64,000 nucleotides of DNA from Candidatus Nanopelagicales bacterium. GTDB lineage: Bacteria; Actinomycetota; Actinomycetes; S36-B12. The translations under genes and the position numbers were made by a program. The DNA lies in assembly GCA_021741645.1 (NCBI GenBank), contig JAIOXK010000003.1, positions 3,504 through 67,503 of the forward strand, read 5' to 3'. The notes under the pieces were generated by a model. That model was not told the origin of the DNA and did no database searches. It saw nothing but the letters and a program-made list of their open reading frames with translations. Below are positions 34,377 through 52,255 of this stretch, piece after piece (position 1 is the first letter of the stretch; each line of letters opens with the position of its first letter).

Positions 34377-34379
34377 GGG

Positions 34380-35708: not shown

Positions 35709-36443
35709 TCAAGGGGTGGACGCAAGCGTCCGGGCTCCGGGTGCGCCGGCGATACGGTCGATGAAGGCGTCGACGAGGCTCTGTGCACGAAGTGCGGCGT
35801 CCTCCCCCTCGGCAAGGGTGTGCTGGTAGAGGATGTCGGGATCTTGACCGTCGGCCTCCACCTGTGAGCGTCCTCCGTTGTTGAACCACCCCTGAAGTCC
35901 GGCCGCTGTGAGTTCTGGGTGAAATTGGACGGCGAGGTTTCTTCGGAGCGTGAACGCCTGTGAGGCGAGGGAGTCCCGAGCAATCTCATGGGCCCCCGGG
36001 GGTAGCTGCCATCGGTCGAAGTGCCACTGGAACCACGGTCCCGGGCCCACGAGATCGGGCTCCTGCGTCCAGATGGGGGTCCACCCGATCTGGGGGCGCG
36101 GAGACCGAGCCACGGAGCCTCCGTGCGCTCGGGCCAGCAGCTGGCCGCCGAAGCAGATGCCCAGGATGGGTACGTCGAGCTCATCGGCCCGGCGCAGCCA
36201 GTCCATCTCGGGCAGCAGCCAGTTGCCGATCGTCTCGTCGTCCCACGCGCCCCACGGGGCGCCCATCACGACCAGGGCGTCGAAGTCACGAGGATCGGGG
36301 AATTCGAAGGGGATGTTGGGATCGTGGAAGTGCTCGGGCGCTACGACGACCCGATCGACCACCTCGTACCCGCGGTGAGCGAACCTCTCGGCCACTGGGC
36401 CTGCCGGACTCAGATGGTCATGCTGGAGAAACAGCACTCGCAT
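35709..36443 (-). CDS. Class I glutamine amidotransferase-like protein (GMP-synthase-type GATase1, stand-alone)
   Basis: VPILGICFGGQLLARAHGG nucleophile elbow and QFHPE. Divergent from a GS-like gene. Confidence 0.8.
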   Translation of the reverse strand: MRVLFLQHDHLSPAGPVAERFAHRGYEVVDRVVVAPEHFHDPNIPFEFPDPRDFDALVVMGAPWGAWDDETIGNWLLPEMDWLRRADELDVPILGICFGGQLLARAHGGSVARSPRPQIGWTPIWTQEPDLVGPGPWFQWHFDRWQLPPGAHEIARDSLASQAFTLRRNLAVQFHPELTAAGLQGWFNNGGRSQVEADGQDPDILYQHTLAEGEDAALRAQSLVDAFIDRIAGAPGARTLASTP

Positions 36444-36513
36444 GGTCTACCCCCTGCCAGAATCGTCAGAAGTCCTTCCCCGTTCGCCGGGGTCGGTCTA
36501 GTATCCACAAGAT

Positions 36514-36529
36514 CGTTGGGGTCCGAACG
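36514..36529. promoter_or_regulatory. Operator-like palindrome, copy 4 (CGTTGGGGTCCGAACG; extended GATCGTT..AACGAATC)
   Basis: 40 nt upstream of the GS-like start (36569) and 71 nt upstream of the divergent GATase1 start. Confidence 0.6.
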
Positions 36530-36568
36530 AATCTTCTCGGATTCCGTCAGAACTCGTGAGGGAGACCC

Positions 36569-37927
36569 ATGCAGCACGACCTGGCCGAAACCCGCCGCAT
36601 CCTGGAGACGCAGGACATCGACGTCGTTCGTCTGATCTTCGCCGACCTCCTCGGCATCACGCGATCCAAGGACGTCCTGGTCTCCCAGCTGGAGCGCGCG
36701 GCGGAGCACGGTCCGGCGTTCTGCCAGGGCACCTGGGTGACGACCACGCGGGGCGGTGTCCTGGACGCCGGCAGTGGCACCGGCAGCATCGAGGACGGCC
36801 TGCCGGACATGATCTCCAAGCTCGACGTCGACACGATCCGCCCGATCCCGTGGCTCCCCGGCGTCGCCTACGCGATAGCGGACATCGACAACCCGGACGG
36901 CAGTCGCAGCACGATCGCACCGCGGGCCGTGCTCCGCGCAGTTCTCGACGAGTATGCGAAGGACGGGCTGCTCCCCATCTGCGGTCCCGAGCTCGAGTTC
37001 TATCTCGCGCAGCGCACGGACGATGGCTGGGAGCGCCTCCTCAACAAACTCGGCCGTGTCTACACGACAGGGTCAATGGTGGATCCCGATGGTCACTACC
37101 TGCACCTGCTTCGGATGATGGATCAGTTGAACATCGGGGCATTCGCCGGCAACCACGAGTTCTGTCCCTCTCAGTACGAGATCAACCTGTGGCACAGCGA
37201 GGCCATGGATGCCGCTGATCGCACGTTCCTCTTCAAGACGGCAGTCAAGGATGTGAGCGCGTCCAGGGGAATCCTGGGCACGTTCCTTGGCAAGCCTTGG
37301 AACGACGAGGGCGGTAGCGGCTTTCACGTGCACCTTTCCGTCAACGACGATTCCGGTGTCAACCGCATGCACGACGGTGCAGGCGAGCTCTCGCCACTGG
37401 CACTCCAGATGATCGCGGGCATCATCGATCATGCCCCCGCCCTTGCGGCCTTCACCAACCCGACGGTGAACGCCTACAAACGGCTGGGTCCTGACACGCT
37501 GGCGCCGTATCGGTCCAATTGGGGCTACGACAACCGATCCACCATGCTGCGGGTCCCGCCGGATCGAGGCCAGGGCACTCGCCTGGAACTGCGCATCGGA
37601 GATGGAACGGCGAACCCGTATGTCGTCATCGCGGTTGTGCTTGCGGCTGCACTCGACGGCGTGCGTCGTGGCCTCACGCCGCCGGAGGCTGCCGCAGGAT
37701 GGGCCTATGAGGACGAGGCCTTCCCGGTGCTACCGATGACTCTGGCCGAGGCGCTCGATGCCCTTCAGGCTGATGAGACGCTGCGAGAACTGCTGCCGAG
37801 CGACTTCCTCAATGTGTTCGTCACGATGAAGCGTGATGAGGTGGAGCGCTACGAGGCCGAGGTCGAGGACCCGACCACCCGTGAGGTCACCCGCTGGGAG
37901 CTCGAGGAGTACATCGAGGACTTCTAG
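36569..37927 (+). CDS. Glutamine synthetase family protein (gamma-glutamyl-amine ligase candidate), copy A
   Basis: GS catalytic-domain motifs GPELEFYL, NHEFCPSQYEINL and GSGFHVHLS. 452 aa. Confidence 0.8.
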   Translation: MQHDLAETRRILETQDIDVVRLIFADLLGITRSKDVLVSQLERAAEHGPAFCQGTWVTTTRGGVLDAGSGTGSIEDGLPDMISKLDVDTIRPIPWLPGVAYAIADIDNPDGSRSTIAPRAVLRAVLDEYAKDGLLPICGPELEFYLAQRTDDGWERLLNKLGRVYTTGSMVDPDGHYLHLLRMMDQLNIGAFAGNHEFCPSQYEINLWHSEAMDAADRTFLFKTAVKDVSASRGILGTFLGKPWNDEGGSGFHVHLSVNDDSGVNRMHDGAGELSPLALQMIAGIIDHAPALAAFTNPTVNAYKRLGPDTLAPYRSNWGYDNRSTMLRVPPDRGQGTRLELRIGDGTANPYVVIAVVLAAALDGVRRGLTPPEAAAGWAYEDEAFPVLPMTLAEALDALQADETLRELLPSDFLNVFVTMKRDEVERYEAEVEDPTTREVTRWELEEYIEDF

Positions 37928-37972: not shown

Positions 37973-39160
37973 TCACCACCTGACGTGCACTGCCGTGGGA
38001 GCGCGGAACTCCCACCCGCGAAATTCCACCGGCTGTGTCAGCTCGAGGGAGGGCAGCGCCTCCACGAGCGTGCGCAGGGAGATTCGCTCGACGTCCCGGG
38101 CGAACGCGTGACCGGCGCAGAAGTGGGGCCCGTAGCCGAAGGCCGCGTTCGGCGTTCGCGGGCGATGGATGTCGAAGACGTGGGGTGAGTCGAACAGCTC
38201 CTCGTCGTGGCAGGCACTGGACACCACAGCAGAGATGAGCTCCCCCTCGGGAATGGTGACCCCGCCGAGCGTGGTCTGCTGAACCGTCGTGGCCTGCATG
38301 GTGCCGATGGGCGCCATCCACCGCAGTGCCTCATGGATGACGTCGTCCCAAGAGTCCGGGTGCTCCTTGATCCACCTCATCTGCTCGGGGTGGGCGAAGA
38401 GCGCGGCGAGACACGATGCTGCGCCGTGACCCGGCTCCTGCATACCGCCGAGAAGGATCACCTTGATCGACGGAAGGAGATCGTCAACCTCGCGATGCTG
38501 GCCCGCAGGACACCCGTGATGGATCATCGAGGAGATCGCGGAGTCATCCGGCTGGGCCTGCCACTCGGCCATCAGGGGTCGAAGCTCCGACTCGATGTCT
38601 GAACATGCAGTCGCATTGTCGGCGGACTTGGTCGGATCGTCCTCGAAGTTCGTGGCTCCCTGGGACAGGCCGTGGAACCACTCCTGCAGGCGCTGCGGTG
38701 GGACGTGCCCGAGGCCGAGCGTCTGGGCGAGCGCGAGCACGCTGATGGGCTCGAAGTACTCGGTCACGAGTTCGGCCTCGTGGGGCTCCTTGGTCATGAG
38801 GGTGGTGACGTATCGGTCCGCGAGGGGCTGGACGAGATCGTCGATGTACGTGGCGACTCGACGAGGCCGGTACTTCTCGTCAAGCGTCCTTCGCAGTTCC
38901 AGATGCTCGGCACCATCCATGGTCATCAGAGTCCGGCCGCCGAAGAACCGGTCGACGGGCGACGAGGGTGCCTCAGCAGTGAAGATCTCGGTCTGCGTCG
39001 TGACGCGCTCCACCTCCGCGGCGCGTGTCACGAGCCAGCAGCCGATCGACGGTACCCAGGCCACCGGCGCCTCCCGGCGCAGTCGGGCATAGATCGGATA
39101 AGGATCTCGTTCTAGGTCCTCCACCGTGATGGACTCGGCGAAACCGGCGTCAGGTGTCAC
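37973..39160 (-). CDS. Cytochrome P450 (no. 2)
   Basis: FGYGPHFCAGHAFA heme loop, EALR ExxR. 4-nt overlap with the upstream LLM gene. Confidence 0.9.
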   Translation of the reverse strand: MTPDAGFAESITVEDLERDPYPIYARLRREAPVAWVPSIGCWLVTRAAEVERVTTQTEIFTAEAPSSPVDRFFGGRTLMTMDGAEHLELRRTLDEKYRPRRVATYIDDLVQPLADRYVTTLMTKEPHEAELVTEYFEPISVLALAQTLGLGHVPPQRLQEWFHGLSQGATNFEDDPTKSADNATACSDIESELRPLMAEWQAQPDDSAISSMIHHGCPAGQHREVDDLLPSIKVILLGGMQEPGHGAASCLAALFAHPEQMRWIKEHPDSWDDVIHEALRWMAPIGTMQATTVQQTTLGGVTIPEGELISAVVSSACHDEELFDSPHVFDIHRPRTPNAAFGYGPHFCAGHAFARDVERISLRTLVEALPSLELTQPVEFRGWEFRAPTAVHVRW

Positions 39161-40116
39161 GTCGTCAAGGTAGCGACGCGCGCGATGACCTCGGAGCAGA
39201 ATCGGGCATGTTCGTTGCGGTCGTCGATGAAGATCGAAGGCTTGATGGCGAAGGTGGTGAAACCGAGATCCTGTTGCCGAGGAATCTCCTCGAGGGCCTC
39301 GCCCAAGGGCGCCACAGAGTCATTGTCGGGGAACTCGACGCGAGTGCCGCCCACCATCTCGAAGTCGTCTGTCGTCCGGCCGGCGGCCACGAGTGCGGCT
39401 CGCAGATTCGCGACGTCCTCATCCTCGACCCGGCCCACGGGGTGGAATCCGCTTCCGTAGCGCACCAATCGGTCGATCATCTTGTCGTGCACGCGTTCGC
39501 CGCCGAACCACATGGCAGGTCCCTGAGGGCGGAACGGCTTGGGCTCCAGGTAGACATCCTCGAACGTGAAGAACTCCCCCGAGTGGCTCACGGGGGAGTG
39601 GGACCAGGCCTTGGCCCAGATGTCGAGCTGCTCGTCCAGGATCCGGCCGCGTCGGTTGAACGGGACGGCCAGTGCGTCGTACTCGTCCCTGTGCCAGCTG
39701 ACGGTGGGCTGGATGACGAGGCGTCCTTCGCTCAGCAGGTCGAGCGTGGCGAGGTCATGCGCGAGGACGAGCGGGTGCCGCAGGGGTGCGATCAGGGCGA
39801 TGGCACCGATCCGGATTCGCGTGGTCGCGGCCGCGATGGCGCTCAGAAGCACAAGGTTCGACGGCCACGGGGTTGCCGGGTCCTGGTTGCCCGGCATGGC
39901 GTAGTCACGCGGATTGGCCATCCGTCCCTGGCTTCCGGCGCTCGGACCGAGCAGCACGTGGTCACTCACCATGACCATGTCGAAGCCCGCATCCTCCGCC
40001 TCCTGGGCCATTCGCACGAGCCCGCGAATGTCCCGCGGGTCGGTCATCGTCCAGTTCTCGGTCAACACGTTGACCATGCGAGGCGTGGACCGAGTCGAGC
40101 CGTCAGCCGTCTGCAT
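39157..40116 (-). CDS. LLM-class (luciferase-like) flavin/F420-dependent oxidoreductase
   Basis: AQEAEDAGFDMVMVSDHVL is typical of the LLM N-terminal region. Start ambiguous (40116, 40077 or 40047). Confidence 0.7.
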   Translation of the reverse strand: MQTADGSTRSTPRMVNVLTENWTMTDPRDIRGLVRMAQEAEDAGFDMVMVSDHVLLGPSAGSQGRMANPRDYAMPGNQDPATPWPSNLVLLSAIAAATTRIRIGAIALIAPLRHPLVLAHDLATLDLLSEGRLVIQPTVSWHRDEYDALAVPFNRRGRILDEQLDIWAKAWSHSPVSHSGEFFTFEDVYLEPKPFRPQGPAMWFGGERVHDKMIDRLVRYGSGFHPVGRVEDEDVANLRAALVAAGRTTDDFEMVGGTRVEFPDNDSVAPLGEALEEIPRQQDLGFTTFAIKPSIFIDDRNEHARFCSEVIARVATLTT

Positions 40117-40189
40117 GCCGTGAAACTAGCGGCCGTGAGTGCCCATGGAGGCGTAACGGGCCTTCGCATCGGCAATGTCGCAATTTTTC

Positions 40190-40205
40190 TGATATTTGAT
40201 GAAAG
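40190..40205. promoter_or_regulatory. AT-rich box, copy 1 (reverse complement CTTTCATCAAATATCA)
   Basis: Lies in the divergent LLM / APC-permease promoter. Shares the ATCAA(A/G)TATC core with the boxes at 44206 and 48594. Confidence 0.45.
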
Positions 40206-40290
40206 TGCTTGACCGGTCAATGGCGATGCGGGAATGTGAGCCATCGTTTGGTCCCGTATGACTCGACTATCCCGTCCCCGTGGAGGAAGC

Positions 40291-41862
40291 ATGTCCCAAA
40301 GGGAGAATCTCCCCAAGTCCGATCAGAGTCTTGGATCACCTGATCCCGAGACCCCTGACACAACTCTGAAGCGCGGCACGCTGGGACTCGCAGGAATCAT
40401 CTTCTTCGTCGTGGCCGCAGCCGCACCTTTGGCGGGCATGACCGGCGCATTCCCGGTTGCCGTCGGCATCGGCAATGGCGCGGCTGCTGCAGGCATGTAT
40501 CTGGCGGTCGGCGTCATCCTGCTGATCTTCAGCGTTGGCTACGCCACGATGAGCCAGTACGTCACCAACACGGGTGCCTTCTTCGCCTATGTGGGTCGTG
40601 GACTCGGCATCGTTCCCGGTGTCGGCTCGGCCGCAGTATCCGTTCTCGCCTACCTGGCCGTGCAATGGGCGGTCATCGGCTTCATCGCCGCCCAGATGTC
40701 CTTCCAGTTCCAGGCGAAGTTCGGAATCGACCTGCCCTGGTGGCTGTACGCGCTCGTCCTGATCGTCATCGTCTGGGCCCTGTCCGCCCTGTCGGTCGAC
40801 ATCGGCGCCAAGGTCCTCGGCGTCTTCCTGACCGTTGAACTGCTCGCTCTTATCATCGTGGGCATCGCGGCAATGGCCAACGGTGGGCCCGAGGGCCCCG
40901 ATTTCGCTGCATCCTTCAGCCCGACGGAGATCTTCGCCGGAGGGCTTGCCGGTGGTGCGGGTATTGCCTTCTCGTTCGCTCTCGCATCCTTCATCGGCTT
41001 CGAGGCGACCGCGATCTACGGCGAGGAGTCCAAGAACCCGAAGCGCAACGTTCCCCTGGCCACCTACATCTCGGTCGTCCTGATCACCGTGATCTTCGCC
41101 TTCGTCGGCTTCGCGCTGGTGACCGGCCTCGGTGCCTCGGACATCCAGAACAAGGTGTTCGAAGTTACGGCGATCGACGGTGTTCCGCTGGCCGATCCCT
41201 CGGGCATGCTGTTCGGGCTCACCACGCAGTTCGTCGGATCCTGGATGACAGAGTTGTTCGGCTGGGTGGTTCTCACCTCGCTGTTCGCCGCCATGCTGGC
41301 GTTCCAGAACAGCGCGGCTCGCTACCTGTTCTCGATGGGTCGCGCAGGAGTCCTCAGCAAGAAGCTCGATCGCACCAACAGCCGTCAGGCTCCTCAGGTT
41401 GCCACGACGGTCGTGTCGATCCTGGCAGTGGCGATCGTCATCATCGGCATCGTGGCCAACTGGGATCCGATCCTGAACATCTTCTACTGGTTCTCTGCGG
41501 TGGCCGTGCTGGCCATCGTGTTCACCGAGATCCTGGTGAGCATCGCGGTGATTGTGTACTTCCGTCGCACCAAGGAGGACACCCGGCTCTGGCATACCTT
41601 GATCGCTCCGATCCTGGCGGTCCTGGGTCTTGGCACCGGAATGATCATGCTGATGGCGCGTTTCAACCTGTTCGCAGGTACCGCGCCGGATCCGAACATG
41701 TGCCCGGGCGATGCGGGATCAGGCTGTGGACCGTTCGAGCTCAACAGCCTCGGCTGGTTCCTCGTGCTGGCACCCTTCGTCATGTTCATCGTCGGGCTCA
41801 TCCTGGGAGCACTCCGACGCGACAAGGAGAACTACGACGCGGTTCACAACTTCGTCAGCTAG
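40291..41862 (+). CDS. APC superfamily amino acid/amine permease
   Basis: About 12 TM helices with an APC-type N-terminal region. ATG 40291 follows GGAGGA. Confidence 0.8.
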   Translation: MSQRENLPKSDQSLGSPDPETPDTTLKRGTLGLAGIIFFVVAAAAPLAGMTGAFPVAVGIGNGAAAAGMYLAVGVILLIFSVGYATMSQYVTNTGAFFAYVGRGLGIVPGVGSAAVSVLAYLAVQWAVIGFIAAQMSFQFQAKFGIDLPWWLYALVLIVIVWALSALSVDIGAKVLGVFLTVELLALIIVGIAAMANGGPEGPDFAASFSPTEIFAGGLAGGAGIAFSFALASFIGFEATAIYGEESKNPKRNVPLATYISVVLITVIFAFVGFALVTGLGASDIQNKVFEVTAIDGVPLADPSGMLFGLTTQFVGSWMTELFGWVVLTSLFAAMLAFQNSAARYLFSMGRAGVLSKKLDRTNSRQAPQVATTVVSILAVAIVIIGIVANWDPILNIFYWFSAVAVLAIVFTEILVSIAVIVYFRRTKEDTRLWHTLIAPILAVLGLGTGMIMLMARFNLFAGTAPDPNMCPGDAGSGCGPFELNSLGWFLVLAPFVMFIVGLILGALRRDKENYDAVHNFVS

Positions 41863-41868
41863 ATCTGC

Positions 41869-41913
41869 CAACGATGAAGGGCCGTTCCGACTCGGATCGG
41901 CCCTTCATCGTTG
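41869..41913. terminator. Bidirectional stem-loop terminator between convergent permease and P450 genes
   Basis: 16-bp perfect stem CAACGATGAAGGGCCG / CGGCCCTTCATCGTTG, with further pairing inside. Confidence 0.65.
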
Positions 41914-41924
41914 TGCGGCTCGCC

Positions 41925-43166
41925 CTAGCGGGATGCGGTCACCAGTGCCGGGAAGGCCGCAATGCCATTGACGAAGCTGGAATTGGTGCGCGTGATAGGC
42001 CCGGTCTGCTCGAACCGGATCTGCCTCTTGATCATCTCCTCGAGGAGCACCCGGATCTCCATCCGTGCCAGCGGCGCCCCGAGGCAGTGGTGTGGACCCT
42101 TGGCCCCGAAGGACACCTGAGGCGGCTTGATCGGCCTGGTGATGTCGAATCTCAGCGGATCCGTGAACTCCTCCTCGTCGAAGTTAGCTGAGCAGTAGAA
42201 GATCACGACCTTGTCGTGGGCCGCTATCTTCACCCCACCCAATTCCGTGTCGCGAGTGGTGGATCTGCGCATGTGCAGCACGGGTGACGCGTAGCGGATG
42301 ATCTCCTCGACGGCCTGGTCGACGAGTTCGGGGCGCGCGTAGAGAAGGTCCAGTTGGTCCGGGTTGTCGACGAAGGCCTTGATCCCGTTGCTGATGGCGG
42401 TCCGTGTGGTCTCATTGCCCGCGAACACCAGCACGTGGAACATGTTCTTGAAGTCGTAGTCCGACAGGGCCTCGCCTTCGAACCGGGCCTCCACCAAGGT
42501 CGTGACCAGATCGTTCTTTGGACTGCGCTCCCGCTCCTCGCGCATCTTGCGCCCGTACTCGAAGAGAGCATGCGATGCGGGGGCGCTAAAGGGCAGCAGC
42601 TCCAACGGGGTGGTGTTGCCGTATGCGTCGGCCGGGACCCCGCTGGAGTCGATCAGCTCGTCGGACCACTGGACCAGCATGTCGGCATCCTCCTCGGGAA
42701 CTCCAAGGATGTTCACGATCACGCGAATGGGCAGGGGTGCACTGATACTCGTGACGATGTCCAACTCTCCTCGCTCGGCTGCCTCCTCGAGCAGGTGCGT
42801 GGTGATGTCACGGGTCACGTCCTCGTAGCCCTTCACCTTGTGACTCGTGAAGGCCGGCATGCCGAGTCGGCGCAAACGGATGTGCTCCGGCCGGTCGGTG
42901 TCGATGATGGACCGTCGGGCTGTCATCTGATCTTCCGTCAGATCGGGAAGGTTGGTCATGCCCAGGGCACTGGAGTAGGTGTCGACGTCGCGCGTGACAG
43001 TCACCAGGTCGCTGTACCGAGTCACGGCCCAGAAGGGACGTCCCTCGTACAGGCGCTGGGCCACTGGCTCCTCGCGCCTCATCTGGGCGAAGACCTCATG
43101 CGGAATACCGGATGAATACGCTGCGGGATCGGTGATGTCCACGGGTGCTCCTGTCTGGGGACTCAT
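41925..43166 (-). CDS. Cytochrome P450 (no. 3)
   Basis: FGAKGPHHCLGAPLA heme loop, EIIR ExxR, AGNETT I-helix. Confidence 0.9.
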   Translation of the reverse strand: MSPQTGAPVDITDPAAYSSGIPHEVFAQMRREEPVAQRLYEGRPFWAVTRYSDLVTVTRDVDTYSSALGMTNLPDLTEDQMTARRSIIDTDRPEHIRLRRLGMPAFTSHKVKGYEDVTRDITTHLLEEAAERGELDIVTSISAPLPIRVIVNILGVPEEDADMLVQWSDELIDSSGVPADAYGNTTPLELLPFSAPASHALFEYGRKMREERERSPKNDLVTTLVEARFEGEALSDYDFKNMFHVLVFAGNETTRTAISNGIKAFVDNPDQLDLLYARPELVDQAVEEIIRYASPVLHMRRSTTRDTELGGVKIAAHDKVVIFYCSANFDEEEFTDPLRFDITRPIKPPQVSFGAKGPHHCLGAPLARMEIRVLLEEMIKRQIRFEQTGPITRTNSSFVNGIAAFPALVTASR

Positions 43167-44137
43167 GCCGTTACTCCGGGAACGATGACGAAGCGACCCG
43201 AGACGTCACCGCTGTGAAGTCGCTCGTGGGCCGCTGGGACATCGTCGAGCCCGATGACTTCGATGGGCGAGTGCAGGCGATGCTCCTGTGCGAGAGCGAC
43301 CATGTCGTGCATCTGATCGAGGGATCCCCAGATTGAGGTCATGAAACGGGCCTCGTGCGGGACGGTACCGAAGCCGAAGGGGATGGTCCCCCCATAGAGA
43401 CCGACGACAACCACGACGCCCTGCCGATGCACGTGATCGCGTGCTGTCACCAGAGTTGCCTCAGCGCCGACGAAGTCGATCACCGCGGTAAACGTCCCTT
43501 CGACCTCGCCTGGGGCGGCAACGGCATCGGCGCCGAGTTGCAGCGCGACCTCCCGCTTCTCTGCGGATGCATCCACCACCGTGACGGCAGCGTCGGAGCG
43601 CATCTTGAGCCACTGGAGCCCGAACTGGCCGAGCCCGCCGGCCCCGATCACCAGTGCTCTGGGTGAGGCAGCGTCATGAAGGGTGCTCAGGGTGTGGTCG
43701 ACGGCCCGGTAGGCGGTCAGCCCGCCGCATGCCAGGGGCGCTGCGTGGGCGGGATCCAGATTGCCGAGTGGGACGAGATACCTGTCATCCGGCACTGCCA
43801 GCCGCTCGGCGTAGCCACCGTCGCGGAACAGTCCTGCCTCGGTGGCATTCGGGCAGATCATCTCCTGGCCGGACTCGCACGCCCAGCACCCGGGCTGGCG
43901 ACAGCCCCAGCACGCATAGACGAGGACCGGCCCGAGCAGGGGGTGCATCGCCGCCACCTCGTGACCGAGGATGACCGGGAGGGTCGTCGGGTAGTCGCCT
44001 GCGGCGGCGTGGAGGTCGGAGTGGCAGATCCCGCAGGCCAGAACGTCGACGACGCTCCCTCCCGACGGCGCTGTCGGTTCGGAGGCGTCGCGGACCTCCA
44101 GCGGCTGCCCTGGTGCGGAGAGGACTACGGCGCGCAT
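43163..44137 (-). CDS. Zinc-dependent alcohol dehydrogenase (MDR family)
   Basis: CGICHSDLH, GHEVAA and a GAGGLG Rossmann motif. 4-nt overlap with P450 no. 3. Confidence 0.85.
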   Translation of the reverse strand: MRAVVLSAPGQPLEVRDASEPTAPSGGSVVDVLACGICHSDLHAAAGDYPTTLPVILGHEVAAMHPLLGPVLVYACWGCRQPGCWACESGQEMICPNATEAGLFRDGGYAERLAVPDDRYLVPLGNLDPAHAAPLACGGLTAYRAVDHTLSTLHDAASPRALVIGAGGLGQFGLQWLKMRSDAAVTVVDASAEKREVALQLGADAVAAPGEVEGTFTAVIDFVGAEATLVTARDHVHRQGVVVVVGLYGGTIPFGFGTVPHEARFMTSIWGSLDQMHDMVALAQEHRLHSPIEVIGLDDVPAAHERLHSGDVSGRFVIVPGVTA

Positions 44138-44205
44138 GGGGAGGCCTTTCGATTGGGTGCGGACGGTTATGCCGATTTACGCTCACGATAGCCGCTCGGA
44201 CACTA

Positions 44206-44220
44206 CATTTATCAAGTATC
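44206..44220. promoter_or_regulatory. AT-rich box, copy 2 (CATTTATCAAGTATC)
   Basis: Lies in the divergent ADH / GS-like promoter. The 10-mer CATTTATCAA is identical to 48594..48603. Confidence 0.45.
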
Positions 44221-44241
44221 CGAGGTGATCTGGGAGGTTCA

Positions 44242-45588
44242 ATGCAGTCGTGGGACCCGGCCGAGCGTGAGCAAGTGGCGGCCCTGTGCGAGGAGCACGG
44301 CATTCACACGGTCGAATGCGTCATCGTGGACACCTGGGGGATGCCCCGAGGCAAGCGCATCCCGGTGCGACAGTTCCTCCGGGGTGGCGGATTCCACATC
44401 GCCAACGTCGTCTACACGTGGGATCCGACGTGCTTCATCTTCTCCACTCCATGGGTCAACGAGGAGCACGGCTTCCCGGACATGCACGCGGTGCCCGATC
44501 TCGCCAGCTTCCGGGTCGCGGGCTGGACCGAGGGTGTGGCCATCGTCATGTGCGACACGTATGACGAGCAGACCCGCGATCCCGTCGAGATGGACTCGCG
44601 AGCGATGCTCAAGAGGCAGGTGCGGCGGGCCGCTGACCTGGGCTTGGGCATCGACGCGGCGACTGAGCTTGAGTGCCATTTCTTCACCGACGACTGGCAG
44701 CCGTTGTACTCCGACATCGACTGCTACTCGATCTACCGGGGCTTCGAGATGGAGCCCTTCATGCTCGACATCCGCGAGTCGCTGCGCAAGACCGGAATAG
44801 AGGTCGAGGCCGCGAATGTCGAGTACGGACCCGGCCAGACAGAGATCAACCTGCGCTACGGGCCGATCATGGACATGGCAGACCACACGGTCTACTTCAA
44901 GTACATCGTCCGGCTCGTTGCGCGCCGGCACGGACTTCGGGTGACCTTCATGGCAAAGCCGTACCTCCTGGAGGCAGGCAACGGCATGCACATCCACCAG
45001 TCGCTCACACGCGACGGCGTCAACGTGTTCGCTGAGACCGACGAGGAGAGCATCCTCGGGAACAGCACCATGCGGCGGTACCTCACCGGGCTGCTTGCCC
45101 ATCACCGTGACCTGCAGTTGATCATGACGCCGACCATTAGCGGCTACAAGCGCGTTCAGGACTACTCGTTTTCACCCACCCAGGTGACCTGGGGCCTGGA
45201 TCACCGGCTCGTTGGTGTCCGGTCGATCGTGGGTGCCGGAAGCGCCAACCGCCTTGAGGCCAGATGGGCGGCGGCGGATGCCAACCCGTATCTCGTGCTC
45301 GCCGGCTGTATCGCGGCCGGGCTCGATGGCCTCGAACGAGATGACGAGCTCATGCCCCAGGTGACGGGTGATCCGCACGCCGATGAGCGTTGGGAGCGGC
45401 TGCCCACTTCGATCGACGGCGCCATCGAGAATTTCGATACCCCGTTCACCCGGTCCGTGTTCGGAGATACGTTCGTCGACACGTTCACCATCATGCAACG
45501 GCGTGAGGCCCAGGAGTTCCTGGAGAACGCCGACCAAGGCGAGGACGTGTCCGACTGGGAGATCCGCAGGTATCGGGCGGTCATGTAG
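44242..45588 (+). CDS. Glutamine synthetase family protein (gamma-glutamyl-amine ligase candidate), copy B
   Basis: ELECHFF, GPGQTEINLRY and GNGMHIHQSL. ATG 44242 follows GGGAGG. The track ORF starts at 44113. Confidence 0.8.
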   Translation: MQSWDPAEREQVAALCEEHGIHTVECVIVDTWGMPRGKRIPVRQFLRGGGFHIANVVYTWDPTCFIFSTPWVNEEHGFPDMHAVPDLASFRVAGWTEGVAIVMCDTYDEQTRDPVEMDSRAMLKRQVRRAADLGLGIDAATELECHFFTDDWQPLYSDIDCYSIYRGFEMEPFMLDIRESLRKTGIEVEAANVEYGPGQTEINLRYGPIMDMADHTVYFKYIVRLVARRHGLRVTFMAKPYLLEAGNGMHIHQSLTRDGVNVFAETDEESILGNSTMRRYLTGLLAHHRDLQLIMTPTISGYKRVQDYSFSPTQVTWGLDHRLVGVRSIVGAGSANRLEARWAAADANPYLVLAGCIAAGLDGLERDDELMPQVTGDPHADERWERLPTSIDGAIENFDTPFTRSVFGDTFVDTFTIMQRREAQEFLENADQGEDVSDWEIRRYRAVM

Positions 45589-46284
45589 ATGGCGCGCATC
45601 CTGCTCATCAGCCATGAACCGGAAGCCGCCCCGGCGGTGGTCGGACAGATCCTGGAGGAGCGCGGCCATGACGTGGATCTGCACGTCGTCCTTGCCGACC
45701 CTGCCAGTCCTGACACGGTGTTCCCCTCCCCAGACGCCTACGACGCGGTCGTTGCCTTCGGCTCGTTCGCCAATGCCTACGACTCGGCGGCTCGAGTTTG
45801 GGTCGAGCCGGAGATCGACTTCATCAAAGGGCTGGTGACCGAGGACATTCCGTACCTCGGAGTCTGCTTCGGAGGCCAGCTCCTTGCTGAAAGCATGGGC
45901 GGCTCTGTGGAGCGCGCCCCGGCCTCCGAGCAGGAGATCGGGCTCGTGTCGTTCCCTCACACTGGCGAACGCCCGGTTCCTGCTGGCCCCTGGTTCACCT
46001 GGCACGAGGATCGAGTTGTCGTCCCGGATTCCATGGACGTCCTTGTCCGAAACTCGAATGCACCTCAGCTGTTCCGTCAGGGGCGCGCGGTGGGGACCCA
46101 GTTTCATCCAGAGGTGAACGTCGAACTTGTGCAGTCATGGCTCAGGATCGGAGGGGATCACGTGCCGTCGCACACCACGGGCGATGCCCTCATCGCTGAT
46201 CTGCAGGCCCATGAAGGGGACCTCCGTCGCAATTGCGCGGCTCTGGTTGACTGGTTCCTCCATGACATCGCGGACCTCGCATGA
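45589..46284 (+). CDS. Class I glutamine amidotransferase-like protein, copy B
   Basis: IPYLGVCFGGQLLAESMGG and QFHPE. It starts at the nucleotide immediately after the GS-like stop. Confidence 0.8.
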   Translation: MARILLISHEPEAAPAVVGQILEERGHDVDLHVVLADPASPDTVFPSPDAYDAVVAFGSFANAYDSAARVWVEPEIDFIKGLVTEDIPYLGVCFGGQLLAESMGGSVERAPASEQEIGLVSFPHTGERPVPAGPWFTWHEDRVVVPDSMDVLVRNSNAPQLFRQGRAVGTQFHPEVNVELVQSWLRIGGDHVPSHTTGDALIADLQAHEGDLRRNCAALVDWFLHDIADLA

Positions 46285-47432
46285 CTGCTCCTCTTGATGG
46301 CGTGATCGTCGTCGCCTTGGAGCAGGCGATCTCCGCCCCCTTCGCCACTCGGCAGCTCGCCGATCTCGGGGCGACGGTGATCAAGATCGAGCGGCCGGAG
46401 GGCGACTTCGCCCGGCACTACGACTCCGTTGTCCAAGGCGAGTCGGCCTTCTTCGTCTGGGCCAACCGGGGCAAGCAGTCGATCGCCCTGGACGTGAAGG
46501 AGCCTGAGGGCGCCGCTACTCTGATGAGCCTGATTGCCGGATGCGATGTCTTCCTGCACAACCTGTCACCTCGCGCAGCAACGTCACTGGGAATCGATGC
46601 CACTACGCTCCACGAGCGCTATCCGCATCTCATCGCTGCGGAGATCTCGGGCTACGGGCTCGACGGTCCCCGCACCGATGACAAGGCTTACGACCTCGCG
46701 ATTCAGGCGGAGGCAGGCGTCTTCTCGGTGACGGGCACCGGCGAGATGAGCAAGGTGGGCTTCTCCGTCGCCGACATCTGCTCCGGTATGTATGCGATGT
46801 CCGGCATCCTTGCCGCTCTCGTGCGCCGGGAGCGGACGGGAGAAGGTGCTGCCATCCACGTCTCCATGCTGGACAGCCTCGTGGAGTGGATGTCGGCTCC
46901 GCTCTACGGCGCGGTGTACGGGGGTGGACAGGGTCCGCGAGCAGGGCGTAGGCACCATGCCATCGCGCCCTACGGGACCTTCGAGCTGGCAGACGGGTCC
47001 GTGGTGCTCATCGCTGTGCAGAGTGACGGTGAATGGCGCAGCATGGCCGAGCACCTCATGGGCGACCCCGACCTCGGCGTGGACGAGCGCTTCGACACGA
47101 ATGCGCATCGGATCGCAGCGGTTGACGACCTGGAGGACGCGATCCGGACTCGCCTGGCCGCACTGAAGGCATCCGAGGCCCTGGCTCTTCTGGAGGAGGG
47201 CCGTATCGCCCACGCACGTGTGAATGACCTCGCGGGTGTTTGGCAGCACGAGCAGTTGCGGGCGCGTGGTCGTTTCGGTCCCGTGTCGACGCCCAGCGGT
47301 GATGTCGAACTGCTCGCGTCGCCCTTCGACATCTCAGGGCTGCCGGCTGCGCAGCAGCGCGTGCCGGCACTGGACGAGCATCAGGCCGAGGTGATCGAGG
47401 AGATCACTCGGCGTGGCCGCGAGCGTCAATAG
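46281..47432 (+). CDS. CaiB/BaiF family (class III) CoA-transferase
   Basis: LDGVIVVALEQAISAPFATRQLADLGATVIKIERPEGD is the family N-terminal signature. Confidence 0.85.
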   Translation: MTAPLDGVIVVALEQAISAPFATRQLADLGATVIKIERPEGDFARHYDSVVQGESAFFVWANRGKQSIALDVKEPEGAATLMSLIAGCDVFLHNLSPRAATSLGIDATTLHERYPHLIAAEISGYGLDGPRTDDKAYDLAIQAEAGVFSVTGTGEMSKVGFSVADICSGMYAMSGILAALVRRERTGEGAAIHVSMLDSLVEWMSAPLYGAVYGGGQGPRAGRRHHAIAPYGTFELADGSVVLIAVQSDGEWRSMAEHLMGDPDLGVDERFDTNAHRIAAVDDLEDAIRTRLAALKASEALALLEEGRIAHARVNDLAGVWQHEQLRARGRFGPVSTPSGDVELLASPFDISGLPAAQQRVPALDEHQAEVIEEITRRGRERQ

Positions 47433-48580
47433 GACTTGGGCAGGCCCAGGACATGCTGACCGAGATACGCGAGCACGAGATTGTTGTTGATGGGAGCCAC
47501 TTGGTACAGGCGCGTCTCGCGGAACTTGCGCTCGATGTCGTACTCGACCGCGAAGCCGAAGCCACCGTGCGCGTCGAGCGCCGCATTGGCTGCAGCCCAC
47601 GAGGCCTCGGACGCGAGGTACTTGGCCATGTTCGCCTCCGTGGCGCAGGCCTCGCCCGCATCGAACTTCGCGGCGGCCTCGAAGCGCACGAGGTTCGCGG
47701 CGCTCAACTGGGCGTACGCGCGGGCCAGCGGAAACTGCACTCCCTGGTTGGCGCCGATCGCCCTTCCGAACACCTCACGCCCGTTGGCGTAGGCGACAGC
47801 GCGATCCAGGACGAACCTGCCATCGCCGATGCACTCTGCGGCGATCAGGATTCGTTCGGCGTTCATCCCGTCGAGGATGTAGCGGAAGCCGTTGCCCTCC
47901 TCACCGATGAGGGCGTCGGCGGGAATGAGGACGTCGTCGAAGAAGACCTCGGTCGAGTTGTGGTTGATCATCGTCGGAATCGGCTTGATCGTCAGGCCGT
48001 GCAAGTCCCGCATGTCGAAGATGAAGACGGACAAGCCACCGGTCTTCTTCTCGACCTCGTCGTAGGGGGTTGTGCGGGCGAGAAGGATCATCAGATCGGA
48101 GTAGAGGGCGCGCGATGTCCAGATCTTCTGGCCGTTGATGCGCCAGCCCTCGGGCACTCGCTCCGCCTTGGTGCGGATGCGAGTCGTCTCGGATCCCGCC
48201 TCGGGTTCGGTGACGCCGAAGGCCTGGAGCCGCAGACTCCCGTCGGCGATGCCGGGGAGATAGCGCTGCTTCTGCTCCTCGCTGCCGTGCCGCAGGAGGG
48301 TCCCCATGATGTACATCTGGGCGTGACAGGCACTCGGGTTGCCACCGGAGGCGGAGATTTCCTCGAGGATGATCGACGCCTCCGTGATGGTGGCACCGCC
48401 GCCGCCGTATTCCTCCGGGACAAGGGCACCCAGGAAGCCCGCGTCGGTCAGGGCTCTCACGAACTCCTCGGGATAGCGATCCGGCTCAAGGGCGCGCCAG
48501 TAGGGGCCGTCGAACCGCTCGACCACCTCGCGTACGCCGCTGCGAAGATCGTCATAGTCGTTGCTCTGAAGAAGATCCAC
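47426..48580 (-). CDS. Acyl-CoA dehydrogenase
   Basis: 384-aa ACAD fold (TEPEAGSETT, catalytic-region GGFGFAVEYDIERKFRE). GTG start. Confidence 0.8.
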   Translation of the reverse strand: MDLLQSNDYDDLRSGVREVVERFDGPYWRALEPDRYPEEFVRALTDAGFLGALVPEEYGGGGATITEASIILEEISASGGNPSACHAQMYIMGTLLRHGSEEQKQRYLPGIADGSLRLQAFGVTEPEAGSETTRIRTKAERVPEGWRINGQKIWTSRALYSDLMILLARTTPYDEVEKKTGGLSVFIFDMRDLHGLTIKPIPTMINHNSTEVFFDDVLIPADALIGEEGNGFRYILDGMNAERILIAAECIGDGRFVLDRAVAYANGREVFGRAIGANQGVQFPLARAYAQLSAANLVRFEAAAKFDAGEACATEANMAKYLASEASWAAANAALDAHGGFGFAVEYDIERKFRETRLYQVAPINNNLVLAYLGQHVLGLPKSY

Positions 48581-48593
48581 AGGATGTTTGTAT

Positions 48594-48609
48594 CATTTAT
48601 CAAATCAAT
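48594..48609. promoter_or_regulatory. AT-rich box, copy 3 (CATTTATCAAATCAAT)
   Basis: Lies in the 44-bp divergent ACAD / ALDH region, inside TGTTTGTATCATTTATCAAATCAATGTG, the most AT-rich stretch nearby. Confidence 0.45.
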
Positions 48610-48624: not shown

Positions 48625-50109
48625 ATGACGAACCCGCCTCCGGACTGGCACGTACTGGCTGCCACTGTCGAGTACCCGACCGATCTGCTCATCGATGGAG
48701 GCTGGGTGCCGGGCGAGCATCGATCAGATGTCGTCAGCCCGATTGACGGTCGGGTGATCACCGATGTCGCGTATGCCGATGCTGCGTCCGTCGACCGGGC
48801 TGTCGCCTCGGCACGCCGAGCCTTCGAGGACCGTCGATGGTCGGGCATGGCGCCGGCCGATCGCAAGGATGTCCTCATCCGCTGGTCGCATCTGGTGAAC
48901 GAGCACGCTGAGCAACTCGCAGTCCTCACATCTCTGGAGATGGGGAAACCAGCCCGAGAGGCCCAGGCGATCGATGTGCGTGCCTGCCATCGCACACTGC
49001 GCTGGTACGGCGAAGCCATCGACAAGGTGCTGGACGAGATGCCCAGCGTCCCGGATTCCTCCTGGGCCTTGATCGAACGCGAGCCGGCCGGGGTGGTCGG
49101 CGCCATCACTCCGTGGAACTTCCCCCTGACGCTAGAGACCTGGAAGGTCGCCCCGGCGCTCGCGGTCGGCTGCTCGGTGGTGCTCAAGCCCGCAGAGCTA
49201 TCTCCGCTGACTGCGCTCTACGTTGCGCGACTCGGGCTCGAGGCCGGGCTCCCGGACGGCGTCCTCAATGTCGTCAACGGCAGTGGAGCGGTGGCGGGAG
49301 CGGCTCTGGCCGGGCACATGGATGTGGATGTGATCACCTTCACCGGGTCGACGGCGACCGGGCGAGCCATCATGGCCGCTGCTGCGCAGTCGAACATGAA
49401 GCGCCCCTATCTTGAGCTTGGCGGAAAGGGCGCGAACATCGTCTTCCCTGATGCCGATCTGGACAAAGCGGCAGCCGCCACGGCCTGGGCCGTGACCTAC
49501 AACGCCGGGCAGATGTGCACGGCTGGGTCGCGGCTCATCGTGCACGAGTCGATCAAGGACGAGGTCGTTGGCAAGGTTCTGGAGGCGATGGCGGCCTTGC
49601 AGCCGAACGACCCACTTCGCCATGACGCCCCCCTCGGTGCGATTGCCAGTGCACGCCAGCTCGAGACGATCCACAGCATCGTGACGGAGGGCCTGGCCGA
49701 GGGCGGACACCTCCTCATGGGCGGCGAGCCCGTACTCACCGAGTCAGGCGGCTCCTACTACCCGCCCACCGTTGTGGAGGGTCTCAATCCGCATTCGTTG
49801 CTGGCCCAGAAGGAGGTGTTCGGTCCAGTCCTGTCCGTGCTCACCTTCGCAACGGATGACGAGGCCATCGCCATCGGCAACGCGACTCCCTACGGCCTTG
49901 CCTCCGCGATATGGACGAACGACCTCAACCGGGCTCGTCGGGCATCCAAGGGATTGCGCATGGGGACGGTATGGGTCAACTGCTTCGAGGAGGGGGATCT
50001 CACGGTGCCTTTCGGCGGCGTCAAGCAGTCCGGCTTCGGAAGCGACAAGTCACTCCACGCCCTCGAGAAGTTCACCAATCTCAAGACGACCTGGATCGAA
50101 CTGTCATGA
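48625..50109 (+). CDS. Aldehyde dehydrogenase
   Basis: ALDH motifs (LELGGKGANIVF, CTAGSRL, EVFGPVL). ATG 48625 follows AGGAGA. The track start is 48610. Confidence 0.85.
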   Translation: MTNPPPDWHVLAATVEYPTDLLIDGGWVPGEHRSDVVSPIDGRVITDVAYADAASVDRAVASARRAFEDRRWSGMAPADRKDVLIRWSHLVNEHAEQLAVLTSLEMGKPAREAQAIDVRACHRTLRWYGEAIDKVLDEMPSVPDSSWALIEREPAGVVGAITPWNFPLTLETWKVAPALAVGCSVVLKPAELSPLTALYVARLGLEAGLPDGVLNVVNGSGAVAGAALAGHMDVDVITFTGSTATGRAIMAAAAQSNMKRPYLELGGKGANIVFPDADLDKAAAATAWAVTYNAGQMCTAGSRLIVHESIKDEVVGKVLEAMAALQPNDPLRHDAPLGAIASARQLETIHSIVTEGLAEGGHLLMGGEPVLTESGGSYYPPTVVEGLNPHSLLAQKEVFGPVLSVLTFATDDEAIAIGNATPYGLASAIWTNDLNRARRASKGLRMGTVWVNCFEEGDLTVPFGGVKQSGFGSDKSLHALEKFTNLKTTWIELS

Positions 50110-50783
50110 GCAGCATCGGACGCGAAACACGCCCGAAGCGGCGAGCGAACCTCGCCGAGGAGGTAGCGACCCACCTGCGGAAGGAGATCCTGTCAGGACG
50201 CCTGCGACCGGGGGTCCGGATCGATCAGGACGGTGTTGCGGACGAGCTCGGAGTCAGCCGCCTGCCAGTCCGCGAGGCGCTCATCTCTCTTGACAGAGAA
50301 GGGCTTGTCCAGACGATCCCGCGCAAGGGCACCTATGTCTCCCGTGTCGATCGCACCGACATCATGGATCACTACCTCATCTTCGGACAGGTTGCCGGAC
50401 TCGCTGCCGCGCGGGCCGTGTCACGACTCGATGACGACGAACTTGCCAATCTGGTCGACCTTCACGACCGGATGCTCGCGGCAGCGAGCCTGAGCGAGCA
50501 GCAGCAGTTGAACCACGAATTCCACCGGAGCATCAACTATGCGGCAGGCAGTCAGCGCATGACGAGCATGCTGCAATTGCTCTCGCGATCCCTGCCCATG
50601 CCCTATCAGGACTTCCCGGCAGAGTGGCTGGACGAGGCCAACCGCCAGCACCGGGAGATCGTCGAGGCTTTCAAGGACCGCGACACCCTGGCCGCTCAAC
50701 GAGCCATGGAACAGCACATCAACGCAAGTGCACGACACGCCATCGAGGTGCTGGAGCGCCTCGACTTCTTTGAGGATGAGTGA
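50106..50783 (+). CDS. GntR family transcriptional regulator (FadR/FCD subfamily)
   Basis: wHTH VADELGVSRLPVREALISLDREGLV plus a helical C-terminal FCD-like domain. ATGA overlap with the upstream ALDH. The track ORF (49911) includes an out-of-gene extension. Confidence 0.85.
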   Translation: MSSIGRETRPKRRANLAEEVATHLRKEILSGRLRPGVRIDQDGVADELGVSRLPVREALISLDREGLVQTIPRKGTYVSRVDRTDIMDHYLIFGQVAGLAAARAVSRLDDDELANLVDLHDRMLAAASLSEQQQLNHEFHRSINYAAGSQRMTSMLQLLSRSLPMPYQDFPAEWLDEANRQHREIVEAFKDRDTLAAQRAMEQHINASARHAIEVLERLDFFEDE

Positions 50784-52255
50784 TGGACCAACACCTGCAC
50801 TGGATCGATGGCGCTCGCACTGCTCCCCTCACGGGAGAGTTCTTGCCGACCTTGGATCCCATGACTGGTGAGCCTTGGGCTCTGATCGCGCGAGGGTCCG
50901 CAGCCGACATAGAGGTCGCTGCTGAGTCGGCGCACCGGGCCTTCGCTTCATGGCGTGCCGTCGGGCCCACTCGTCGTGCTGAAATCATCTGGCGGTTGGG
51001 GGACCTGATCGCTGAGCACGCCGATGAGCTTGCAGCGCTGGAGGCGCGCGACGCGGGAAAGGTGGTGCGTGAAGTTAAGGGCCAGATGCTGTCAATGCGT
51101 GCTTGGTATCACTACTACGCCTCATTGGCGTATCAGACTGAAGGTCGAAGCATTCCCCAGGACAGAGCGAGTCTGACCGTGTTCACGCAGCGGATTCCCT
51201 TTGGCGTGGTTGGTGTCATCCCGGCCTTCAACTCCCCGATGCTGCTGGGCGGCATGGGACTGGCACCGGCTCTTGCCGCTGGCAACACGGTGGTCGTCAA
51301 GCCCCCAGAGGTGAACTCGCTGTCACTGCTGCGCCTGGGTGAGCTCGCACAGCAGGCAGGACTCCCAGACGGGTGCCTGAACGTGGTCTCGGGCTACGGT
51401 CATGAGGCGGGCGATGCGTTGGTGGCACACCCGTCTGTCCGAAAGATCTGGTTCACCGGTGGCCCGGACAGTGCACGTTTCGTCGCGGCTCGCGCTGCTG
51501 AGAACCTGAAGCCACTGGTGCTGGAGTTGGGTGGCAAAAGCGCGAACATCTTCTTCGACGACGTACGGGTCGACGATGTGGTCAACGGCGTGATCGCTGG
51601 CATCTTTGCCGCGGCAGGCCAGACATGCGTGGCGGGATCGCGACTTCTGGTTCAGGAGGGTGTTGCGGATGAACTGGTGGCGCGCATTGCTGAGCGCGCT
51701 GGGAGTATCCGGCTCGGGGATCCGGTCGCCGAGGAAACCGATATGGGCCCCATCTCTCAGGAGAAGATCCTCGATGGTGTTCAGAGCCGGGTGCTGGAGG
51801 CAATAGCCGAGGGCGCAAATCTTGTCTGTGGCGGTGACGACGCGGATCGTCCTGACCATGGCTGGTTCTACGCCCCTACCGTTCTCGACAATGTCACGAA
51901 CGACATGTCCGTCGCCCGCAATGAGCTCTTTGGCCCTGTGCTCTCTGTTATTCGGTTCTCGACGGAGGAGGAGGCTGTAGCCATCGCCAACGACTCGCCG
52001 TTTGCACTTGCGGCGGGGGTCTGGACTCGCGACCTCGGTCGGGCGCACAGAATGGCAGGGCGATTGGACACGGGGACGGTTTGGGTGAACATGTACCGAG
52101 CTCTTCAGTTTGCTACTCCATTCGGAGGCAACAAGCTCTCCGGATACGGGCGCGAGAACGGCATGGATGGGTTCGCTGAATTCACTCAGCCCAAGGGTGT
52201 GTGGGTGGAGTCAAGCGACGACCCTGTCGGAGACCCTTTCGTGCTTCGGGCCTGA
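50780..52255 (+). CDS. Aldehyde dehydrogenase
   Basis: ALDH motifs (LELGGKSANIFF, CVAGSRLL, ELFGPVL). GTGA-type overlap with the GntR gene. Confidence 0.85.
   Translation: MMDQHLHWIDGARTAPLTGEFLPTLDPMTGEPWALIARGSAADIEVAAESAHRAFASWRAVGPTRRAEIIWRLGDLIAEHADELAALEARDAGKVVREVKGQMLSMRAWYHYYASLAYQTEGRSIPQDRASLTVFTQRIPFGVVGVIPAFNSPMLLGGMGLAPALAAGNTVVVKPPEVNSLSLLRLGELAQQAGLPDGCLNVVSGYGHEAGDALVAHPSVRKIWFTGGPDSARFVAARAAENLKPLVLELGGKSANIFFDDVRVDDVVNGVIAGIFAAAGQTCVAGSRLLVQEGVADELVARIAERAGSIRLGDPVAEETDMGPISQEKILDGVQSRVLEAIAEGANLVCGGDDADRPDHGWFYAPTVLDNVTNDMSVARNELFGPVLSVIRFSTEEEAVAIANDSPFALAAGVWTRDLGRAHRMAGRLDTGTVWVNMYRALQFATPFGGNKLSGYGRENGMDGFAEFTQPKGVWVESSDDPVGDPFVLRA

Follow-up and report, generated by a model that had tools for sequence, protein, structure and literature searches.

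AT-rich boxes at the divergent promoters of an actinobacterial gamma-glutamylation/P450 cluster as candidate operators of its FCD-type GntR regulator

Are the short AT-rich boxes that lie between divergent genes of a catabolic cluster the binding sites of a regulator encoded in the same cluster, or are they parts of the promoters themselves? The question was raised by a preliminary description of a 64-kb stretch of DNA from a Candidatus Nanopelagicales bacterium (assembly GCA_021741645.1, contig JAIOXK010000003.1; this whole stretch is called the window below), which proposed three such boxes as a second regulon under an FCD-type GntR protein and gave -10 elements as the alternative. Our comparative analysis makes it fairly probable that the boxes are operators of this GntR protein, the candidate binder, which would act as a repressor at sites laid over the core promoters of a gamma-glutamylation/P450 amine-catabolic cluster. 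The elements in question are listed here with their scores in a 19-nt matrix, for whose training nothing but sites 2 and 3 of orthologous loci in many genomes was used:

40186..40204, minus strand: site 1 ("A"), TTTCATCAAATATCAGAAA, with the core ATCAAATATC at 40191-40200; 25.4 bits
44202..44225, plus strand: site 2 ("B"), ACTACATTTATCAAGTATCCGAGG, with TACATT at 44204-44209 and heptads at 44210-44223; 26.6 bits
48585..48609, plus strand: site 3 ("C"), TGTTTGTATCATTTATCAAATCAAT, with heptads at 48591-48604 and TATCAT at 48591-48596; 31.5 bits
50106..50783, plus strand: candidate regulator GntR/FCD, 225 amino acids, Pfam PF00392 and PF07729

The three AT-rich sites were found exactly where they had been placed, as 40190-40205 reads CTTTCATCAAATATCA on the reverse complement, 44206-44220 reads CATTTATCAAGTATC and 48594-48609 reads CATTTATCAAATCAAT, and the 10-mer said to be common to 44206 and 48594 (CATTTATCAA) is exact. 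Pfam also agrees with the flanking genes as they had been named. Site 1 separates an F420-type luciferase-like monooxygenase (LLM) gene, with a P450 gene, on the minus strand from an APC permease gene on the plus strand; site 2 separates Zn-alcohol dehydrogenase (ADH)-P450 from glutamine synthetase (GS)-like-GATase1-CoA-transferase III; and site 3 separates an acyl-CoA dehydrogenase (ACAD) gene from an aldehyde dehydrogenase (ALDH)-GntR/FCD-ALDH set. From the end of the site 2 block it is 17 nt to the GS-like ATG (44242). Site 1 is flanked by the LLM start (40116, minus strand) on one side and by a -35-like TTGACC (40209-40214) of the permease promoter on the other. The background had been put too high at roughly 70% G+C, the measured values being mostly 0.64-0.65 (range 0.62-0.69).

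Against this background the boxes stand out both in composition and in sequence. Throughout the 64 kb, 16-mers with at most four G/C (at least 75% A+T) were found at the three sites only, and 12-mers with at most two G/C were likewise confined to them. The 8-mer TTTATCAA occurs twice where 0.08 occurrences are expected, the pattern ATCANNTATC has exactly three matches, one per site, against 0.59 expected, and a 10-mer in common between blocks of such composition arose in 0.075% of composition-preserving shuffles. When both strands of the window (128 kb) were scanned with the matrix, the only other match of at least 8 bits was the reverse strand of site 3. Because site 1 reaches its score with a matrix trained on sites 2 and 3, it is a full match that is independent of the training data. 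No part of the window matched an Rfam family, so the boxes are not explained by a known RNA element.

A search for the motif in orthologous loci had been recommended and was made. Relatives were retrieved by a CoA-transferase scan with one genome kept per species, giving 80 loci that were inspected over +/-10 kb around each locus. All are metagenome-assembled Actinomycetota (Nanopelagicales, “Actinomycetales”, one Nocardioides and many Acidimicrobiia), none is an identical copy of the window, and three more look-ups with GntR homologues agree with the CoA-transferase-based picture. Around 35 loci share the order permease, P450, ADH / GS-like, GATase, CoA-transferase, ACAD / ALDH, GntR, ALDH, EamA. 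In about 30 of these genomes, the sequences of site 2 (ACTACATTTATCAAGTATC) and site 3 (ATTTGTATCATTnATCA) hardly vary, amid scrambled spacers. In the ADH/GS spacer, ACTACATTTATCAAGTAT(C) was found with at most two mismatches in 34 loci including the window, with the remaining 70-100 nt being unalignable; the information profile of site 2 has about 20 near-invariant columns and scrambled flanks. In the ACAD/ALDH spacer, TTGTATCATT is present exactly and once per locus in 35 loci, followed by (T/G/A)AT(C/A)A. Over both sites the conserved columns number 18-24. Matches of at least 14 bits in all of the loci, 1.41 Mb in total, fall at the B and C positions or in other promoters of rearranged cluster copies, with two weak exceptions. 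As the loci bearing sites 2 and 3 range over 57-72% G+C and 58-90% protein identity, such near-invariance indicates that both sites are functional and under strong selection, and on this comparative evidence they are ancient cis-elements. The proposal that the boxes form a second cis-element set, apart from the G+C-rich GTTCGGnCCC boxes of the same region, is thereby supported by comparative genomics.

Sites 2 and 3 also coincide with -10-like hexamers of the TANNNT kind (TACATT and TATCAT, respectively). A NGGAC(G/A) hexamer is found 17 nt 5' of TACATT in 15 of the 34 site 2 loci, the window having GCTCAC there. Site 3 fills its 44-bp spacer. On the plus strand its TATCAT lies ~28 nt before the ALDH ATG, and an extended -10 can be read on the minus strand in TGATACAAA (48595-48587), at positions -15..-7 of the ACAD GTG. 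The ACAD start codon (a CAC or CAT triplet) is exactly 7 nt from TTGTATCATT in 34/35 loci (48578-48597 in the window), and the intervening 7-mers are of 28 different kinds, without a Shine-Dalgarno sequence. An invariant 7-nt gap lacking a ribosome-binding site is as predicted for a leaderless mRNA, and ACAD is probably transcribed in this way from the 44-bp spacer. The presence of -10-like hexamers inside the boxes suggests that operator and promoter would be superimposed. A scan of the three spacers with an E. coli-type two-hexamer promoter model and for terminators gave nothing, the E. coli model being uninformative for Actinobacteria.

The candidate regulator has the two domains expected of an FCD-type GntR protein, a winged helix-turn-helix (wHTH; PF00392, residues 16-78, E = 2.4e-18) and a C-terminal FCD domain (PF07729, residues 98-206, E = 3.9e-20). 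Its nearest solved structure, 7xp0 (E = 2e-19), is distant, its nearest solved relatives are FCD-type regulators, and no NCBIfam equivalog was found for it. The start of the gene overlaps the first ALDH gene (ALDH1) by ATGA (50106-50109) and its stop overlaps the second (ALDH2) by GTGA (50780-50783), so that GntR is translationally coupled to both. As the gene is thus coupled within the operon 3' of site 3, that site would make GntR autoregulated, implying negative autoregulation.

Presence of the motif and presence of the gene go together in the 80 loci. All 28 loci with a GntR orthologue have a motif match of at least 19 bits, no locus has the orthologue without a match, and 46/80 have neither. 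Six of the 80 have the motif without a detected GntR: in five the contig ends before the GntR position, and in L012 the gene is frameshifted. The motif also stays with the gene where the cluster differs in gene content or order. In L013 and L018, which are without ALDH1, site 3 is directly 5' of GntR. In the rearranged L040, CTTTGATATTTGATAGGG, which contains the 11-mer TGATATTTGAT of window site 1, lies ~45 nt before the GntR ATG, in the opposite orientation. In the Nocardioides locus (L064), TTTGATTCTTTATCAAGAA lies ~25 nt before GntR, there are more sites before the CoA-transferase and GS-like genes, and the ADH/CoA-transferase spacer holds a site of 26.9 bits. Of all the regulators, GntR is the only one conserved in the cluster. 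Strong or palindromic TATCA-type sites were seen beside non-core genes as well, ATCTATCAAGTATCAGAGC at L040 15162-15180 (minus strand; 24.9 bits) and TGATAAATTATCA at L064 18509-18529; these may be further regulon members in rearranged genomes.

A group of sister loci (L020-L024, L027 and L080) has kept the ADH and GS genes, with ALDH1-GntR swapped for a puu-like module, which in L020, L021, L023, L024, L027 and L080 (56-59% G+C) is accompanied by a bestrophin-like gene. The FCD regulator of these loci is 28% identical to that of the window; their site 2 is degenerate (ACACTACATTTAGCCAAGTATG) and site 3 is absent. In L024 the puu-like module (11166-17148) comprises this different FCD GntR, Peptidase_C26, SDR, a second GS-like gene and ALDH.

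How the boxes are built was explored by comparing their profiles. Tandem heptads of the form TATCAnn-TATCnnA fit all three sites, as cATCAAA-TATCAGA in site 1 (minus strand), TATCAAG-TATCCGA in site 2 and TATCATT-TATCAAA in site 3, and the common register TATCAnnTATCnnA (48591-48604 in site 3) fits the orthologues too. The preliminary description had aligned site 3 on the common 10-mer; this alignment was dropped, as both the comparison of the site 2 and site 3 profiles and the three-way fit favor a register shifted by 7 nt. Both registers work at site 3 because of the internal heptad repeat. A third heptad copy is at most degenerate. The direct-repeat reading of the heptads is descriptive and not proven. 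A palindromic reading was rejected for sites 2 and 3, where each profile compared with its own reverse complement gave no positive score. A partial palindrome, TATCAtTGATA, is seen only in distant variants of site 3 (L016, L026, L028, L031, L035, L040, L041 and L082), and a TTGTAT..ATACAA symmetry is likewise limited to distant site 3 variants.

Several observations weigh against GntR operators as the explanation. Comparison with the reverse complement detected no dyad symmetry in site 2 or in site 3 of the window type, the TKGT-N3-ACMA consensus of the FadR subfamily is not matched, and the boxes have no GT-N3-AC core. The -10-like hexamers in both conserved boxes would by themselves account for 6-9 conserved positions. 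Loci without an orthologous GntR still have AAGTAT and the left half of site 2 (ACACTACATTTA), so that part of the conservation of site 2 is independent of this regulator and probably due to the promoter. The co-occurrence of GntR and motif is confounded by phylogeny, most GntR-negative loci being distant Acidimicrobiia with a different gene order. The -10 proposed for ACAD (TACAAA) lacks the usual final T, and the closest relatives do not have site 1, being G+C-rich at the homologous position. For the FCD-type GntR as controller, the co-occurrence and the motif before the relocated gene speak in favor and the unmatched palindrome consensus against, and comparative genomics leaves it as the candidate binder.

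It is unlikely that the boxes are promoter elements and nothing else, namely the -10, extended -10 and start regions of housekeeping-sigma promoters, face to face in site 3, with no dedicated regulator. TACATT and TATCAT fit the actinobacterial TANNNT -10, many loci have a GGAC(G)-type -35 at 17 nt 5' of TACATT, and TGATACAAA keeps its exact place and its 7-nt spacing before ACAD. Sites 2 and 3 always point the same way with respect to the operons downstream of them, and the survival of the left half of site 2 without the orthologous GntR would be explained as well. However, conservation is not confined to the hexamers. It covers 18-24 nt, including CAAGTATC, which is 3' of both candidate -10 elements of site 2, and a core of 10-16 nt recurs at three promoters of one cluster and nowhere else in the 64 kb. 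By contrast, the permease promoter of these loci has a -10 region that varies between relatives (as judged by eye). The motif is also found 5' of a -35 (site 1) and inverted before GntR in L040. Taken with the perfect co-occurrence with GntR, the number of conserved columns, the restriction to the cluster and these two placements argue that promoter function alone is insufficient. The alternative of the preliminary description thus stands as far as sites 2 and 3 coincide with -10-like hexamers and falls short in the extent of the conserved sequence.

It is also rather improbable that the boxes are operators of a factor encoded outside the cluster, such as a global regulator of nitrogen or carbon metabolism, with GntR binding elsewhere or having another role. 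Such a factor would suit a motif that is unlike the canonical GntR/FadR operator, a different factor might recognize the degenerate site 2 of loci that lack the orthologue, and our view extended 10 kb to either side of each locus. This hypothesis does not fit well with a motif that is confined to the cluster, both in the window and across 1.4 Mb of sequence from related loci, and that moves along with the GntR gene in rearranged clusters, nor with GntR being the sole regulator conserved there. The GlnR box is GTnAC-n6-GaAAC and the AmtR box CTAT-N6-ATAG, and the motif does not seem to resemble either.

That the boxes are non-specific A+T-rich patches, due to chance or to nucleation of an Lsr2-like nucleoid protein on acquired DNA, is very improbable and for sites 2 and 3 effectively refuted: no part of the window is richer in A+T than the boxes, but their sequence, beyond its composition, is kept base for base in ~30 genomes of 57-72% G+C, and their common core is far above chance.

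If the boxes are indeed operators of the GntR protein, which genes would they control? The neighboring genes are the following:

37973..40116, minus strand: F420-type LLM-P450 operon, towards which site 1 reads
40291..41862, plus strand: APC-family permease; its promoter holds the box of the other regulon, and site 1 5' of the -35
41925..44137, minus strand: Zn-ADH-P450 operon, divergent on the other side of site 2 and possibly co-regulated
44242..47432, plus strand: GS-like (gamma-glutamyl-amine synthetase type)-GATase1-CoA-transferase III operon, 3' of site 2
47426..48580, minus strand: ACAD (Pfam), sharing the 44-bp spacer with site 3
48625..52255, plus strand: ALDH1-GntR-ALDH2 operon, 3' of site 3; arrangement conserved in L001-L018 and others

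No NCBIfam name was obtained above the curated cut-off for the enzymes of the cluster. The best hints below the cut-off were a PuuC-like ALDH, a gamma-glutamylputrescine-synthetase-like GS, a succinate-glutarate CoA-transferase-like protein and a glutaryl-CoA-dehydrogenase-like protein. By these similarities the enzymes point to a Puu-like gamma-glutamylation together with P450 hydroxylation, feeding a branch of dicarboxylate, CoA-transferase and ACAD; the substrate and the effector of the cluster are guesses. Downstream of the cluster, the order EamA, GT4 glycosyltransferase and GlgC-like (window 52277-55685) is the same in L081 (12236-15683 of a 3.68-Mb contig), which suggests a conserved chromosomal neighborhood and no obviously mobile island. 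In three long-read metagenome-assembled contigs (L012, L044 and L008), frameshifts and indels break the ALDH1, GntR, ACAD and permease frames in tblastn, an issue of assembly quality that can mimic gene loss.

The three sites had been presented together as one regulon and all match the matrix, but they are not of equal standing, site 1 being absent in the closest relatives. At the homologous position, L044, L081, L002 and L006 have GGGACATTTGCCGAAAG or a similar sequence; these four, L008 and L042 share (C)GGGACAYTTGnCGAAAG, directly 5' of a conserved -35-like TTGAC, and ~six G/C-to-A/T changes separate this G+C-rich sequence from CTGATATTTGATGAAAG of the window. An ancestral origin of site 1 was ruled out by the presence of GGGACATTTGCCGAAAG there in the closest relatives, and from these alignments we conclude that it is a lineage-specific gain or strengthening. 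Weaker matches of 7.8-17.5 bits were found elsewhere 5' of the permease gene in more distant loci (L016, L017, L018, L028 and L035); such scores are reached by ~1-2% of 250-nt windows, mostly at true sites. Since site 1 reads towards the LLM-P450 operon, this operon is a possible lineage-specific member of the regulon.

The box of the other regulon at the permease promoter (40245-40256) is found in the window and in nearly all relatives, as CGTTTGGTCCCG at 40245 in the window and as ATCGTTCGGCCCCGCACGAT in the relatives. There it is very conserved and stands just after a TTGAC-N17-nAnnnT promoter, whereas the window copy, CGTTTGGTCCCGTATG, is more degenerate. This box belongs to a type of G+C-rich near-palindrome, CGTTCGGACCCnAACG, which occurs in the window at 32741-32756, 35665-35680, 36514-36529 and 40245-40256, in the promoters of an upstream P450/GATase/GS-like module and of the APC permease. 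With its genes for ferredoxin reductase, P450, GATase1 and a GS-like protein, that module (33384-37927) is a paralogous, second one for gamma-glutamylation. No TATCA boxes are found in it, and control seems to lie with the G+C-rich box. A G+C-rich inverted repeat was also observed directly 5' of the permease -35, at the positions homologous to site 1, in L004 (~3225-3250, where it reads TTTCGGGACATATCCCGAAA), L008, L042 and L044. Such a repeat could serve yet a further factor as its operator, or be a degenerate version of the TATCA box (CAAGTGTCC versus CAAGTATCC).

In the model that we favor, with GntR as repressor, site 2 would cover the -10 (TACATT) and the start region of the GS-like-GATase-CoA-transferase promoter, its heptads extending from ~-7 to +8, and site 3 would cover two face-to-face -10 elements, TATCAT for ALDH-GntR-ALDH and TGATACAAA for the leaderless ACAD mRNA. 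The bound repressor would exclude RNA polymerase in both directions and repress its own gene, until released by a metabolite of the pathway, probably a carboxylate by analogy with other FCD domains. Through site 1, as a recent gain, the same control would have come to include the LLM-P450 operon and possibly the permease. Being tandem and not palindromic, the layout suggests a manner of binding nearer to the repeat operators of the NanR type than to the palindrome of the FadR type. More doubtful, and offered tentatively, is the full version of this model, in which GntR would read the tandem TATCA heptads, a single operator would shut the 44-bp face-to-face pair of promoters (one of them leaderless), and a third promoter (LLM-P450/permease) would in this lineage just have been captured through ~six G/C-to-A/T substitutions while the older G+C-rich operator of the permease decays. 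If true, the heptad reading and the capture of the third promoter would amount to the rewiring of a regulon caught in the act.

An operator sequence, its target promoters and a candidate repressor together define a testable regulon for an uncharacterized regulator, in a cluster found widely among uncultured Actinomycetota (Nanopelagicales and relatives) of freshwater and soil. As they hardly vary, the 19-24-nt boxes could serve as metagenome markers for the cluster and, once the effector is known, be turned into an inducible promoter or biosensor. Literature searches with the motif strings brought up nothing beyond unrelated primers and hits of that sort, and searches on the cluster type found no description of the regulon.

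The proposed switch is nevertheless of an ordinary, familiar kind, and the finding leaves the general view of how such switches work unchanged; it is the operator architecture, non-palindromic, that is atypical. The system resembles those of local FCD GntR repressors such as DgoR, LldR, PdhR and GntR of B. subtilis in its wHTH and all-helical FCD effector domain, in a regulator gene embedded in the catabolic cluster that it would control, in a candidate operator overlapping its own promoter, and in one site serving a divergent gene pair, as in the “divergons with a single site” treated in PMC4494728. Operators of the FadR subfamily follow a palindromic, A/T-rich consensus in which 3 nt separate a TKGT box from an ACMA box; recorded non-palindromic exceptions are NanR (direct repeats TGGTATAW) and BioR (PMC4494728). 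The sites of the window read as tandem heptads instead of the TKGT-N3-ACMA palindrome, and the candidate regulator differs from these repressors in having no NCBIfam equivalog.

NanR of E. coli, an FCD-type GntR protein, binds short tandem direct repeats, (GGTATA)3, that cover the promoter (PMC8012715; PMC4494728), and its 32-residue N-terminal extension is needed for cooperativity (PMC8012715). Its unit read on the other strand, TATACC, resembles the TATCA of our boxes. The differences are three copies of GGTATA against two clear copies of TATCAnn with a 7-nt period, and an extension of ~32 residues against 15 residues before the wHTH here, which starts at residue 16; in sequence NanR is a weak relative (NCBIfam, 45.8 bits against a cut-off of 260). 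If the heptad reading is true, the boxes would be a second well-defined exception, after NanR, to the operator rule of the FadR subfamily.

The nearest functional analogue in the literature appears to be PipR (MSMEG_6700) of M. smegmatis, described as a FadR-like GntR protein that controls the P450 PipA and the use of piperidine and pyrrolidine (PMC2018728; PMC9477822). Both systems tie an actinobacterial FadR-like GntR protein to an amine-attacking P450, and the cluster described here adds to this the GS-like, GATase1, CoA-transferase, ACAD and two ALDH genes. EpuRI and EpuRII, the specialized regulators of the GS-like glnA4/glnA3 in Streptomyces coelicolor, are comparable as local regulators at gamma-glutamyl-amine synthetase promoters in Actinobacteria (PMC11356490), although they serve other pathways (ethanolamine and polyamines) without a P450.

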